Source: Escherichia coli (GTDB taxonomy: Bacteria; Pseudomonadota; Gammaproteobacteria; Enterobacterales; Enterobacteriaceae). Taken from it: a DNA stretch of 64,000 bases. The DNA lies in the NCBI RefSeq assembly GCF_003334785.1, contig NZ_QOWV01000002.1; one strand, given 5' to 3'. The first letter of the stretch is position 1, and every line of letters starts with the position of its first letter. A program made the position numbers and the translations under genes. Positions 684 through 38,558 of the stretch are shown piece by piece. The notes beneath the pieces were generated by a model. It ran no database searches. It was given only the letters and a program-made list of their open reading frames with translations, and was not told the origin of the DNA.

Positions 684-875
684 CTAACGTTGTACCGGTG
701 ATTCGACGGAGAGTGTGGATTGCTGAGCTTCTTTTTTGCTCTGATGGTGCTGCCAGGCACCGACGGACGAGTAGATAAAACGGCCAAAGAAGAAGATAAA
801 GCTGATGAGCAGTACGATACGGGTCATGCGACTGTTAAATCGGTGTCGTTTTCGCATACTGGTTGCCTGACTCAC
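684..875 (-). CDS. yfgG: Small membrane protein YfgG (63 aa)
   Basis: ORF-track 63 aa product with one hydrophobic helix (IVLLISFIFFFGRFIY); position between yfgH and pdeF matches E. coli synteny. Confidence 0.75.
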   Translation of the reverse strand: MSQATSMRKRHRFNSRMTRIVLLISFIFFFGRFIYSSVGAWQHHQSKKEAQQSTLSVESPVQR

Positions 876-1085
876 AAAAGGTTCCTTGAAGTATGTCCCA
901 CGCTGTGGACGGTACTTACATTAAGGCACAACAGGACAAAATGGTCAATTCTTCGTTATGTAAAAAAGCGTCAGTGGATACATATTTTAATGTTATGGAA
1001 GTTAATTTAATTATTTACAATGATGATGTAATAATGATGAATTAACATGATAAACGTAATAATTCATTAATCAGGGTTATTTTGT

Positions 1086-1099
1086 TTGATATATATCAA
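1086..1099 (+). promoter_or_regulatory. FNR box (TTGAT-ATAT-ATCAA) of a class II promoter for pdeF
   Basis: Perfect match to the FNR consensus TTGAT-N4-ATCAA; a TAGAAT -10-like hexamer at ~1121-1126 puts the box centre ~41.5 bp upstream of the implied transcription start; ~130 bp upstream of the pdeF ATG. Confidence 0.7.
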
Positions 1100-1226
1100 T
1101 TGGTACTTTCATATGACACTTAGAATCAATGCTCTCTATAGTGATGAATAATCATCATTCGAAGTCAGGTGGGATGCCTGTCTGAATACACCTCCTTCAG
1201 GATGTGGGGGATTCTGCTGAGCATCT

Positions 1227-3470
1227 ATGAAACTGAATGCAACTTATATAAAAATACGTGATAAATGGTGGGGGCTTCCGCTGTTCCTGCCTTCTTTAAT
1301 CTTGCCCATTTTCGCCCACATTAATACTTTCGCGCATATTTCTTCCGGTGAGGTTTTTCTCTTTTATCTGCCTCTGGCACTGATGATCAGCATGATGATG
1401 TTTTTCAGCTGGGCGGCATTGCCAGGGATCGCCTTAGGGATTTTTGTCCGCAAATATGCAGAGCTGGGTTTTTACGAAACGCTATCATTAACGGCTAATT
1501 TTATTATCATTATCATTCTCTGTTGGGGCGGTTACAGGGTCTTTACTCCCCGGCGTAACAACGTTTCACATGGTGATACCCGTTTAATTTCCCAGCGTAT
1601 ATTCTGGCAGATTGTGTTTCCTGCAACGCTGTTTCTGATACTTTTCCAGTTTGCTGCATTTGTAGGATTACTGGCGAGCAGAGAAAATCTGGTCGGTGTC
1701 ATGCCTTTTAACCTCGGGACTTTAATCAATTATCAGGCCTTACTGGTGGGTAATCTGATCGGTGTCCCGCTGTGCTACTTCATCATTCGGGTAGTGCGAA
1801 ATCCATTTTATTTACGTAGCTATTATTCGCAATTAAAACAGCAGGTTGATGCCAAAGTCACCAAAAAAGAGTCCGCGCTCTGGCTACTGGCATTAGGTGC
1901 TTTATTGTTGCTGTTATGCATGCCGTTAAATGAAAAAAGCACAATTTTTAGCACCAATTATACCTTGTCATTATTGCTGCCCCTGATGATGTGGGGAGCG
2001 ATGCGCTATGGTTATAAGCTGATTTCGCTGCTCTGGGCGGTCGTGTTGATGATCAGCATCCACAGCTATCAAAATTACATTCCCATTTATCTTGGCTATA
2101 CCACGCAGCTGACCATAACCTCCTCCAGTTATCTGGTATTCTCTTTTATTGTCAATTATATGGCTGTACTGGCAACCCGTCAGAGAGCGGTAGTCAGACG
2201 CATTCAGCGGCTTGCGTATGTGGACCCGGTGGTTCATCTGCCAAATGTTCGCGCCCTGAATCGCGCGTTGCGTGATGCCCCCTGGTCTGCGCTTTGTTAT
2301 TTACGCATCCCTGGCATGGAAATGCTGGTTAAGAACTATGGCATCATGCTGCGGATTCAATACAAGCAAAAACTTTCTCACTGGCTGTCACCCTTGCTGG
2401 AACCGGGTGAAGATGTTTATCAGCTTTCGGGTAACGATCTCGCGCTGCGACTGAATACAGAATCGCACCAGGAGCGCATTACCGCACTGGATAGCCATCT
2501 CAAGCAATTTCGTTTCTTTTGGGATGGCATGCCGATGCAACCGCAGATTGGCGTCAGTTACTGCTATGTGCGCTCGCCAGTGAATCATATCTACCTGCTG
2601 CTGGGAGAGCTAAATACGGTCGCCGAACTTTCCATCGTGACCAACGCCCCGGAAAATATGCAGCGTCGCGGGGCAATGTATTTGCAACGCGAATTGAAAG
2701 ATAAAGTCGCGATGATGAATCGACTACAGCAGGCGCTGGAACACAACCATTTTTTCCTGATGGCCCAGCCGATTACCGGTATGCGTGGTGATGTTTACCA
2801 TGAAATTCTTCTGCGCATGAAAGGTGAGAATGATGAACTGATCAGCCCCGATAGCTTCTTGCCGGTCGCGCACGAATTTGGTTTATCGTCGAGTATCGAC
2901 ATGTGGGTCATTGAGCATACGCTGCAATTTATGGCTGAAAACAGAGCGAAGATGCCCGCTCACCGTTTTGCTATTAATCTGTCTCCAACCTCGGTATGTC
3001 AGGCTCGTTTTCCTGTTGAAGTCAGTCAGTTGCTGGCTAAATATCAGATTGAAGCGTGGCAACTTATTTTTGAAGTCACCGAAAGTAATGCTCTGACCAA
3101 TGTTAAGCAGGCGCAAATCACCTTGCAGCATCTTCAGGAATTAGGCTGCCAGATTGCGATTGATGATTTCGGCACCGGCTACGCCAGCTATGCGCGGCTT
3201 AAAAATGTGAATGCCGATCTGCTTAAAATTGACGGCAGTTTTATCCGCAATATTGTGTCAAATAGTCTGGATTATCAGATAGTGGCATCGATTTGCCACC
3301 TGGCGCGAATGAAGAAAATGCTGGTAGTGGCAGAGTACGTTGAAAACGAAGAGATCCGCGAGGCGGTGCTCTCTTTGGGGATCGATTATATGCAGGGTTA
3401 TCTTATTGGTAAGCCGCAGCCGTTAATTGATACGCTGAATGAAATCGAACCCATTCGCGAAAGTGCCTGA
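1227..3470 (+). CDS. pdeF: Cyclic-di-GMP phosphodiesterase PdeF (YfgF): N-terminal multi-pass membrane (MASE1-like) region, degenerate GGDEF, C-terminal EAL domain
   Basis: 747 aa ORF; hydrophobic N-terminal third; EAL-domain motifs (EVTES, DDFGTGYAS, KIDGSFI) in the C-terminal part. Confidence 0.9.
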   Translation: MKLNATYIKIRDKWWGLPLFLPSLILPIFAHINTFAHISSGEVFLFYLPLALMISMMMFFSWAALPGIALGIFVRKYAELGFYETLSLTANFIIIIILCWGGYRVFTPRRNNVSHGDTRLISQRIFWQIVFPATLFLILFQFAAFVGLLASRENLVGVMPFNLGTLINYQALLVGNLIGVPLCYFIIRVVRNPFYLRSYYSQLKQQVDAKVTKKESALWLLALGALLLLLCMPLNEKSTIFSTNYTLSLLLPLMMWGAMRYGYKLISLLWAVVLMISIHSYQNYIPIYLGYTTQLTITSSSYLVFSFIVNYMAVLATRQRAVVRRIQRLAYVDPVVHLPNVRALNRALRDAPWSALCYLRIPGMEMLVKNYGIMLRIQYKQKLSHWLSPLLEPGEDVYQLSGNDLALRLNTESHQERITALDSHLKQFRFFWDGMPMQPQIGVSYCYVRSPVNHIYLLLGELNTVAELSIVTNAPENMQRRGAMYLQRELKDKVAMMNRLQQALEHNHFFLMAQPITGMRGDVYHEILLRMKGENDELISPDSFLPVAHEFGLSSSIDMWVIEHTLQFMAENRAKMPAHRFAINLSPTSVCQARFPVEVSQLLAKYQIEAWQLIFEVTESNALTNVKQAQITLQHLQELGCQIAIDDFGTGYASYARLKNVNADLLKIDGSFIRNIVSNSLDYQIVASICHLARMKKMLVVAEYVENEEIREAVLSLGIDYMQGYLIGKPQPLIDTLNEIEPIRESA

Positions 3471-9046: not shown

Positions 9047-9243
9047 AGACTGCTTTACACAACCTTTTTGCACGTCTTTTCCCCAGGCGCGCGGCGAAAG
9101 AAGACTTGTGCCAGGGTAAAGGTTAGTTTTCGGATGGAATAATCTTCTTTCATAACCATCTGAATATAAAATAACTTTATCTCAAACCGTTATCATTTTG
9201 ACTAAAGTCAACGAAAAGAATATTGCCGCCTTGAAGAAAGGAG

Positions 9244-23914: not shown

Positions 23915-25354
23915 TTACTGCAACCAGGTCGCGGCGATTACGCTGGAAATCAGCGACATCACAATCAGTACAATCAACACCAGGCGCATTGATCCTGGCA
24001 GCGGTGCGGCATCGGCGACGGCCTCGCTCGGTTTGCCAGGCACAACGCGACCAAACCAGCGAATAAACCAGGCGAAACTGGCGACCGATTCAATCATCAG
24101 AAGAATCATGGCGGGCAGCAGGATCCAGTACTCCACTGACAACGCAAAACCGGCAGCAAACAGCGGGAATTTACTGAAGAAGCCGTTGAACGGCGGCACG
24201 CCGGTAATCGCCAGCGCTGCCACGCAGAAACCCACGCCTGGCAACGGCAGGGTGTGCAATACGCCACGCAGACGCGGCAACAAGCGCGTGCCGCAGCTGT
24301 AACTCAGCGCACCTGCTACAAGGAAAAACAGGCTTTTAGCGAACGCGTGGTTGACGATGTAGGCGATGCTGCCCTCCAGCGCCAGCCGCGAGCCGAAGAT
24401 GGAGAGCGACAAGCCGAAGAACATCCAGCCAAGTTGAGTGATGGTCGACCAGGCTAGCAACCGCTTCATATCCTGCTGTGGCAAATACATCAGAAAGCCA
24501 TAAAGAATGGTGACCAGTGCCATGACCATGCCAACGCCGCCAATCACATGCGGGATATTGCCGCCGTCGATAATAGCGCGGGCAAAAATGTAAACGCCCA
24601 CTTTCACCATCGATGCGGCGTGGAGATAGGCGCTGATCGGTGTTGGCGCTTCCATTGCGTCCGGTAGCCACGCTTGCATCGGTAGCTGGGCCGATTTCCC
24701 CCACGCGGCAAACAGGATGCCGCCATAAACCAGATAACGTGCGTCGCCGTGTAACTCGCTCATCGCGCTAAGCGCAAACGTTCCGGTCTGCAAAAACAGC
24801 GTGGCGGCGGCAAGATACAACCCCAACGAGCCGATATGAGTGATAAGTAACGCTTTTAGTGCTGAACGCTGCGCTTTATCGCTCTGGTAATAACTGATCA
24901 ACGCCCAGGAGCAGCCGCCTGTAATTTCAAAAAACAACAACTGACCGAGCAGCGTCGAGGAGAGTACCAGTCCCGCCATCGCGCCGATAAACACCAGTAA
25001 AAATGCGTAATAACGATTCGTGCCGTTATGCGGGTGTTCGCGATTTTTATCCGTCAGATAACCCGTGGAGTAGATCGTGACCAGCAAACCGAGAAACACC
25101 ACCACAAACAGAATCAGCGTACTCACGCGATCAATGACCAGGCCAAACAACGCCACATCCCCCACGTTGACCAACGTCAACGTGACGGCAACTTTATCGG
25201 CCTGATAAAACGCGGAGATCAGTGACAACATGCACAGCGTGGTCAGCGCGGCGAACAAAACCCCCCATTCGGCGGCCCGACGTTGTGGCGAAAACGAAAC
25301 GACCAGTGCGCCGATAAAAGGCAGCAATAACGTCGTCAGAGCAAGATTTTCCAT
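23915..25354 (-). CDS. hyfD: Hydrogenase-4 membrane subunit HyfD (NuoL/M/N antiporter-like)
   Basis: 479 aa antiporter-like membrane protein. Confidence 0.9.
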   Translation of the reverse strand: MENLALTTLLLPFIGALVVSFSPQRRAAEWGVLFAALTTLCMLSLISAFYQADKVAVTLTLVNVGDVALFGLVIDRVSTLILFVVVFLGLLVTIYSTGYLTDKNREHPHNGTNRYYAFLLVFIGAMAGLVLSSTLLGQLLFFEITGGCSWALISYYQSDKAQRSALKALLITHIGSLGLYLAAATLFLQTGTFALSAMSELHGDARYLVYGGILFAAWGKSAQLPMQAWLPDAMEAPTPISAYLHAASMVKVGVYIFARAIIDGGNIPHVIGGVGMVMALVTILYGFLMYLPQQDMKRLLAWSTITQLGWMFFGLSLSIFGSRLALEGSIAYIVNHAFAKSLFFLVAGALSYSCGTRLLPRLRGVLHTLPLPGVGFCVAALAITGVPPFNGFFSKFPLFAAGFALSVEYWILLPAMILLMIESVASFAWFIRWFGRVVPGKPSEAVADAAPLPGSMRLVLIVLIVMSLISSVIAATWLQ

Positions 25355-37430: not shown

Positions 37431-38558
37431 TCAGGCGACGAGCTGTTCCATGATACGTTGATACATACGGGCAAGTAGCTGCAGGTCGGCAGCGTTCACA
37501 CATTCATTAATTTTATGAATAGTGGCATTGACCGGCCCGAGTTCCACCACCTGCGCCCCCATGCGGGCAATAAAGCGCCCGTCGGACGTTCCGCCTGTGG
37601 TCAGTAGCTGCGGTTTAATTTCATTATAGTGCTCAACCGCGTTAACGACCGCATCCACCAGTTTACCGCGCGCGGTCAAAAATGGCTGCCCGGAAAGCCA
37701 CCAATCCACCGTATAGCGCAGTTGATGTTTTTCAAGCAGGGCAAGCACCTGCGCTTTGATCATCTCATCAGTCAGTTCGGTGCTGAAGCGGAAGTTAAAC
37801 TGCACAAACAGTTCACCCGGAATAACGTTGTTACTGCCCGTTCCCGCCTGAATATTGGCAATCTGCATACTGGTCGCCGGGAAGAATTCATTGCCCTGAT
37901 CCCACTCAATAGCCACTAATTCATTAAGGAAAGGTGCTGCGCGATGTACCGGATTGTCAGCCAGATGTGGGTAGGCAACATGCCCCTGAACGCCATGAAT
38001 GGTAAGGTTGCAGGTTAATGATCCGCGACGACCATTTTTCACCACATCACCTACCACTTCGATACTCGACGGTTCGCCAACCAGGCAGTAATCGAGACGC
38101 TCATTACGTGCCATTAACGCTTCGACGACTTTTACCGTACCGTTGTGGGCACTGGCTTCTTCATCAGAGGTGATCAGAAATGCCAGTCGCCCCGTATGGT
38201 TGGGATGTTGTGCGACAAAACGTTCTGCCGCCACCACCATCGCCGCCAGCGAGCCTTTCATATCTGCCGCACCGCGCCCGAATAACATGCCGTCACGAAT
38301 GGTGGGTTCAAACGGGGGATTGATCCAACGATCGGCGTCGCCAGGCGGCACCACGTCGGTATGCCCGGCAAAGGCTAACGTTTCACCCTGCCCACGCCAT
38401 GCCCAAAAATTCTGCGTATCGGCAAAGTCCATGCGTTCAACGGTAAAACCGATCGCCTGCAAACGTTCAATCAACAAAGCCTGGCATCCTGCATCATCAG
38501 GACTCAGGGAAGGGCGGCGAATAAGCTGTTGTGTCAGCTCAATAACCGGGCACGACAT
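37431..38558 (-). CDS. dapE: Succinyl-diaminopimelate desuccinylase (M20 peptidase)
   Basis: 375 aa; M20 family metal-binding motifs ([15 protein letters not shown]). Confidence 0.93.

Follow-up and report, generated by a model that had tools for sequence, protein, structure and literature searches.

Canonical class II FNR-dependent promoters, including those of narG and dmsA, that of yfiD (-40.5) and the synthetic FF-41.5, carry their FNR site near -41.5. The FNR consensus reads TTGAT-N4-ATCAA, as against TGTGA-N6-TCACA for CRP. The E. coli gene yfgF, also named pdeF, is reportedly expressed most strongly at 28 °C and in stationary phase. Where it deals with yfgF, Lacey 2013 (PMC3718329), citing Lacey, Partridge and Green 2010, describes a class II promoter with the box at -41.5 and a TAGAAT -10 element, and states that FNR activates yfgF expression, which is maximal under anaerobic conditions. 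Additionally, Myers 2013 (PMC3688515) reported, under the label yfgF/yfgG, an FNR ChIP peak at 2627146 (Table S5), listed the exact 14-mer of the box at K-12 position 2627088 as an FNR-bound predicted site with a PWM score of 16.08 (Table S6), and assigned yfgF, for which one start site is known, as the target. The occupancy of the site by FNR in vivo, the dependence of the promoter on FNR and anaerobiosis, and the -41.5 position have all been shown in this literature.

The DNA analysed here, a stretch of 64,000 nucleotides referred to as the window, derives from an E. coli chromosome and contains the gene order yfgH, yfgG, pdeF, ppx. The RefSeq annotation of a locus identical to the window lists guaB, guaA, yfgI, yfgH, yfgG, a 50-aa hypothetical protein, pdeF, ppx and ppk1. 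According to this annotation and to the list of open reading frames, pdeF (positions 1227–3470, plus strand) encodes a c-di-GMP phosphodiesterase of 747 aa, while the annotation and the synteny in all genera place yfgG (684–875, minus strand, 63 aa) divergently upstream of it. The two genes are separated by a spacer of 351 bp (876–1226); of the 5426 complete genomes of E. coli, 5423 carry this spacer at 95% identity or more. The divergent adjacency of the two genes is kept in every genus compared, and the spacer is colinear throughout. Published coordinates were transferred by the relation K-12 = 2626953 + (1227 - window position), by which 2627088 maps onto window position 1092.5. As a check, this relation predicts window positions 9198–9211 for the upp/purM FNR site, and the site is found there.

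The FNR-binding site, TTGATATATATCAA, occupies positions 1086–1099 with its centre at 1092.5, and was identified as a perfect consensus palindrome by direct reading of the sequence, by conservation, and by its entry in Table S6 of Myers 2013. It is composed of TTGAT (1086–1090), ATAT (1091–1094) and ATCAA (1095–1099), and agrees with the TTGAT-N4-ATCAA consensus at 10/10 positions. A perfect match to TTGATNNNNATCAA occurs once in the 64 kb, both strands counted, with 0.10 expected from dinucleotide shuffles and one match present in 10 of 100 shuffles. When one mismatch is allowed, the window holds four FNR-like sites against 2.6 expected, so that relaxed sites are no commoner than chance would provide. 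Since the DNA around the box is AT-rich (GC content of 0.24 at 950–1130, against 0.53 in the whole window), the uniqueness of the box alone is modest evidence. Of the other FNR-like sites, TTGACTAAAGTCAA at 9198–9211 is that of upp/purM, for which Myers 2013 gives an FNR ChIP peak. Two more, TTGACCAACGTCAA at 25167–25180 and TTGATGTTTTTCAA at 37722–37735, fall within long open reading frames (23915–25354 and 37431–38558, minus strand) and are probably chance matches.

The -10 hexamer of the FNR-dependent pdeF promoter, TAGAAT (1121–1126, plus strand), lies 21 bp after the box; TAnAAT is found at the same spacing in every genus, and the hexamer is the one named by Lacey 2013. If it is set at -12 to -7, the start falls at 1133 and the box centre at -40.5, while a start at 1134 puts the centre at -41.5; both are class II positions. 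From the geometry of box and -10 element and from the published -41.5, we infer that pdeF transcription starts at 1133–1134 (plus strand), and at 1134 if the box is at -41.5. An earlier note, made from the sequence alone, had placed a perfect FNR palindrome ~130 bp upstream of pdeF and a TAGAAT hexamer where a class II (-41.5) architecture predicts it. The palindrome is indeed at 1086–1099, with a measured distance of 134.5 bp between its centre and the pdeF ATG at 1227, and the predicted position of the hexamer is accurate to within 1 bp (centre at -40.5 or -41.5). No usable -35 element goes with this hexamer: the six bases 17 bp upstream of TAGAAT are AATTGG (1098–1103), which match TTGACA at 0/6 positions, and the core pdeF promoter should therefore need an activator. 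In these respects the promoter resembles those of narG, dmsA and yfiD and FF-41.5, having a consensus FNR site that overlaps a missing -35 region, a dependence on the activator, and, as in canonical class II FNR promoters, a good -10 element 21–22 bp downstream of the site. Unlike narG or dmsA, the pdeF promoter has, to our knowledge, no documented co-regulation by NarL/NarP.

The strongest evidence comes from the comparison of 18 pdeF loci, 14 from genome assemblies and four from metagenomes, the set spanning Escherichia, Enterobacter, Phytobacter and Kluyvera in addition to the metagenomes. A scan for PdeF in one genome per species yielded full-length orthologues in further Escherichia lineages, Enterobacter asburiae, Phytobacter, Kluyvera and an Enterobacteriaceae isolate; the peptide patterns used for this genome collection were too specific to catch Salmonella, Citrobacter and Klebsiella. 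Metagenomes were scanned with the leader 15-mer CAGGTTGGATGCCTG, which gave at least 120 loci; among the matches listed, four are genuine pdeF leaders (L119, L127, L130 and L144) and the remainder are chance matches. PdeF is 57–63% identical outside Escherichia. A TTGAY-N4-RTCAA box is present in all 18 loci, and in 18/18 TAnAAT begins exactly 35 nt after the start of the box, leaving a 21-bp gap. The box lies ~134–174 bp upstream of the start of the tblastn match, a point that is itself up to 10 codons inside pdeF. Specifically, an alignment of the whole spacer from 11 sequences has among its unchanging columns the T-T-G-A and T-C-A-A of the box as well as the T-A-n-A-A-T of the hexamer, with variation in the N4 spacer of the box and at adjacent bases. 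Both elements lie between -150 and -68, counted from the ATG, and over this stretch the other genera are 52–59% identical to E. coli, no higher than over the coding sequence (~59–62%). Judged from these alignments, an invariant box, -10 element and spacing amid diverged DNA constitute a classical phylogenetic footprint, which points to strict selection on all three and which we take as the decisive argument that the box is real. The same comparison supports TAGAAT as the -10 element in use.

Within E. coli, 1577 genomes match the 55 bp at 1080–1134 exactly, and another 2734 do so with one mismatch. The sampled promoter variants differ at positions 1104 and 1129 only, and never in the box or the hexamer. 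Position 1104, located between box and -10 element, is T in the window and A in every other sampled E. coli strain, and the 2734 single-mismatch genomes also point to A; at 1129, some strains have T instead of A. In strain ES6 (L201, NZ_CM184335.1), an IS1 element is inserted at ~1101/1102, between the FNR box and the pdeF -10 element. This insertion parts the box from the core promoter, and the strain is thus a natural promoter mutant.

Two other explanations bear on the promoter itself. The palindrome might be a product of chance, or a site for CRP or some other regulator, without FNR function: local GC is only 0.24, and one in ten shuffled windows holds a perfect site. However, the half-site cores do not change from genus to genus, unlike the N4 spacer, FNR is bound there in vivo (Myers 2013, PMC3688515), and the sequence of the box is the FNR consensus, not that of CRP, which leaves this explanation a negligible weight. 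Alternatively, pdeF could be transcribed mainly from a sigma-70-like match, ATGACA (1113–1118)-18-TATAGT (1137–1142), spanning 1113–1142 on the plus strand, in which case the FNR site would be near -56.5, a non-canonical location, and would not be a class II activator site. This pair is the sole match of a consensus scan of 600–1400, and the same pair was predicted by Shimada 2014 for a genomic-SELEX site of RNA polymerase alone; yet the scan gives fewer matches than shuffles do (1 versus a mean of 2.4), and -56.5 is a non-activating position for FNR. Furthermore, neither hexamer is conserved beyond Escherichia, in contrast to the invariant TAnAAT, and the account of yfgF in Lacey 2013 (PMC3718329) names TAGAAT. 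We consider it highly improbable that most pdeF transcription comes from this pair. As the FNR-dependent core it is ruled out by its lack of conservation, and it could at most be a minor, FNR-independent promoter in Escherichia.

The remaining alternative concerns the target gene. The yfgG promoter, recognized by blocks that are invariant across genera, comprises a -35 element TTGACC (948–943) and a -10 element CTTAAT (925–920) on the minus strand, separated by a 17-bp spacer. Shimada 2014 predicted the same hexamers, and Peano 2015 found a ChIP peak of sigma-S RNA polymerase over this region (window 918–950). FNR at 1086–1099 might have its main effect at this divergent promoter instead of at pdeF, or might serve both genes: the site lies in the shared spacer, which is colinear in all genera, the peak of Myers 2013 is labelled yfgF/yfgG, and in Table S12 of that study (PMC3688515) yfgG is ~2.2-fold higher anaerobically in the wild type (0.45) while yfgF is absent. 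The positions argue otherwise, since the centre of the box precedes the yfgG start region (~905–913) by ~180 bp, a distance far outside class I and class II positions, whereas its spacing to the pdeF -10 element is fixed across genera. Moreover, the names yfgG and yfgF are both missing from Table S8, which gives the operons found to differ between the wild type and delta-fnr, and the authors themselves assign yfgF as the target (Myers 2013, PMC3688515). Direct control of yfgG by FNR is unlikely, and a main action of the site on yfgG, or a shared one, is very unlikely.

The feature is, with a probability of roughly 0.93, the class II promoter of E. coli pdeF (yfgF) that is already known to be activated by FNR. 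The site, its uniqueness in the window, its spacing to the -10 element, the missing -35 element and the conservation across genera were all observed here. The class II reading given in the earlier note agrees with Lacey 2013 (PMC3718329), with the ChIP data of Myers 2013 and with this conservation. The note's appeal to reports of anaerobic, FNR-dependent induction of yfgF/pdeF is likewise borne out by the statement on yfgF in Lacey 2013 (PMC3718329). Compared with the K-12 yfgF promoter, as far as it is described from Lacey 2010 (Microbiology 156:2873), the box, TAGAAT, the -41.5 assignment and the gene are the same, and we see no difference of substance apart from the T at 1104 in the window. 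The FNR promoter of pdeF is thus already known, having been published in 2010, and the note is a correct re-reading of it that contains nothing new. Mechanistically, FNR carrying its [4Fe-4S] cluster would dimerise under anoxia and bind the palindrome at 1086–1099, overlapping the region of the missing -35 element. From about -41.5 it would recruit and activate RNA polymerase at TAGAAT (1121–1126), and a transcript starting near 1134 would have a leader of ~93 nt before pdeF. Oxygen would inactivate FNR and shut the promoter. In this way the promoter couples oxygen sensing by FNR to the degradation of c-di-GMP, and hence to motility, surface properties and tolerance of oxidative stress, a link that has been published since 2010.

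The output of the promoter is not that of a simple switch. As reported in Table S9 of Myers 2013 (PMC3688515), yfgF has an FNR peak without an FNR-dependent change of expression in glucose minimal medium, so FNR binding at yfgF does not always give activation. The word textbook in the earlier note is therefore too simple for this promoter. In Table S11 of the same study, yfgF is O2-dependent (0.23, +O2/-O2) only in a delta-hns/delta-stpA strain, and Table S7 gives an FNR ChIP-chip signal of 1.68 in that background, up from 0.35 (PMC3688515). H-NS is marked in the yfgG-pdeF spacer by Shimada 2014. Based on its composition (GC content of 0.24) and on these two studies, the AT-rich DNA at 950–1085 is likely an H-NS/StpA-sensitive region that masks the promoter. 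Sensitivity of this AT-rich upstream DNA to silencing by H-NS/StpA would make induction dependent on the growth condition. We infer that H-NS acts in this manner; the promoter itself is conditionally silenced, with nucleoid proteins and the growth state gating its output. Sarenko 2017 did not detect PdeF protein by immunoblot at any growth stage in complex medium, and attributed this to its anaerobic induction.

In having AT-rich upstream DNA and an induction seen only in delta-hns/delta-stpA, the pdeF promoter is like hlyE and other FNR targets masked by H-NS (Category 7 of Myers 2013). It is unlike the Category 7 sites, which are unmasked only in the mutant, in that yfgF is bound by FNR in the wild type and its occupancy merely rises without H-NS. 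It also differs from most class II FNR promoters, in that a near-perfect site does not prevent its output from being masked during exponential growth on glucose. A perfect FNR site that is occupied by FNR can thus stay transcriptionally silent because of H-NS/StpA.

Next to the promoter, the leader of the transcript is conserved as well. The 5' leader of pdeF would extend for ~93 nt from the inferred start to the ATG (1134–1226, plus strand). Over its last 67 nt before the ATG, the genera share 63–79% identity with E. coli, more than in the coding sequence, and this part includes two near-invariant blocks, CAGGT(G/T)GGATGCCTG at 1166–1180 and GCATCTATGA at 1221–1230, the latter preceded by GA in most sequences. 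The second block overlaps the ribosome-binding block GAGCAUCUAUG (1219–1229, plus strand), of which GCAUCUAUG (1221–1229) is invariant. RNAalifold predicts two hairpins, HP1 and HP2. HP1 (1166–1180, plus strand), defined by the alignments and by RNAalifold, has the form CAGGU-GGGAU-GCCUG in E. coli and CAGGU-(G/U)GGAU-GCCUG in the consensus, with GGA in the loop; it is invariant but for one loop base (G/T), all five pairs included, and hence carries no covariation information. HP2 (1184–1214, plus strand), defined by folds and by changes in its stem, has an inner stem of CCUCC (1191–1195) and GGGGG (1206–1210) and the loop UUCAGGAUGU, with GGA at 1200–1202. Individual folds place GGA in the HP2 loop in 14/15 distinct sequences, the exception being Kluyvera intermedia, in which it is paired. 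The arms of the HP2 stem change in a compensatory manner between lineages, the forms being CCUCC/GGGGG, CCCUU/AAGGG, CCCAC/GUGGG, CCCU/AGGG, CCCA/UGGG and AUACCC/GGGUAU. In a covariance-model alignment, 94% of cells are paired, and two of the four HP2 pairs have substitutions in both partners. Shuffles average a covariation score of 0.095, compared with 0.153 for the alignment, a value that 2 of 500 shuffles and one slid control also reach, so the statistical support for covariation in HP2 is modest.

A second fold competes with HP1. GGAUGC of HP1 (1172–1177) can pair with GCAUCU (1221–1226), just 5' of the AUG, and this helix is in the minimum-energy fold of ~11 of 15 sequences, as well as in the fold of the E. 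coli leader. The helix covers the ribosome-binding region and excludes HP1; as a predicted structure, the alternative pairing could hide this region from the ribosome. The fold of the whole leader is no more stable than those of shuffles (z = -0.14). A scan of 300–1500 against Rfam at E<=1 returned only two implausible eukaryotic hits and none in the leader, and our literature searches found no paper describing the pdeF leader and nothing relevant on links of yfgF/pdeF to NsrR or of pdeF to a small RNA. A sigma-54 or second-promoter reading of the invariant leader block was checked by eye and did not fit. As a separate observation, a mini-ORF, ATG CCT GTC TGA (Met-Pro-Val-stop), lies at 1174–1185 inside the invariant hairpin and is preceded by AGGTGG. 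It was rejected as a conserved leader peptide, since its stop is lost in Enterobacter, in the MGYG isolate and in the metagenomic locus L119, so that the reading frame continues, in L119 in frame with pdeF.

These folds raise the possibility, which we regard as tentative, that the structured leader (1166–1229) is a functional post-transcriptional element acting on top of FNR control. CsrA is the candidate regulator suggested by the pattern of two GGA motifs in hairpin loops, (G/U)GGAU in HP1 and GGA in HP2 in 14/15 sequences. As in the CsrA-controlled leaders of glgC, ymdA, dgcT/ycdT and dgcZ/ydeH, GGA is displayed in two short hairpin loops, and pdeF belongs to c-di-GMP metabolism, a known CsrA theme. 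Additionally, the HP2 loop of E. coli, UUCAGGAUGU, fits RGGAUGU of the SELEX consensus for CsrA and includes the CsrB repeat, CAGGAUG. Unlike the CsrA-controlled leaders, however, that of pdeF has no GGA overlapping the Shine-Dalgarno sequence, the likeness being one of sequence and predicted folds. No GGA is present in 1215–1229, and thus no CsrA-type motif overlaps the Shine-Dalgarno sequence or the start codon, so that only indirect mechanisms, such as the remodelling of hairpins in ymdA, would fit. The supplements of Potts 2017 on E. coli CsrA (CLIP and transcriptome) and the Salmonella CsrA supplements have no entry for yfgF/pdeF, which is weak evidence because pdeF would be little expressed unless the cultures were anaerobic. 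CsrA specifically is a more doubtful proposal than a post-transcriptional element in general. Were the leader functional, CsrA, or another factor or signal choosing between the two folds, would set the amount of PdeF once FNR has switched transcription on. Such an arrangement would link carbon and growth-phase signalling to the anaerobic turnover of c-di-GMP, and a conserved RNA element of this kind could explain the condition-dependent expression reported for pdeF.

The spacer on the yfgG side has features of its own. The 50-aa hypothetical protein WP_000017552.1, annotated by PGAP at 893–1045 on the plus strand inside the AT-rich spacer, is probably a spurious annotation and not a real gene: outside Escherichia the ATG is missing, and the tblastn similarity comes from the yfgG promoter, whose DNA is conserved. 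YfgG itself (63 aa) is 74–81% conserved at the amino acid level, against 57–63% for PdeF. Between the yfgG and pdeF promoters lies the invariant block TGTAAAAAAGCGTCAG at 959–974, followed by a palindrome at 980–993, which reads ACATATTTTAATGT in E. coli and takes the perfect form ACATTAATTAATGT in Kluyvera and the MGYG isolate. This conserved upstream palindrome and the leader element might be the only parts of the locus worth further work. Another invariant block of the spacer, TATTTACA, is located at 1012–1019.
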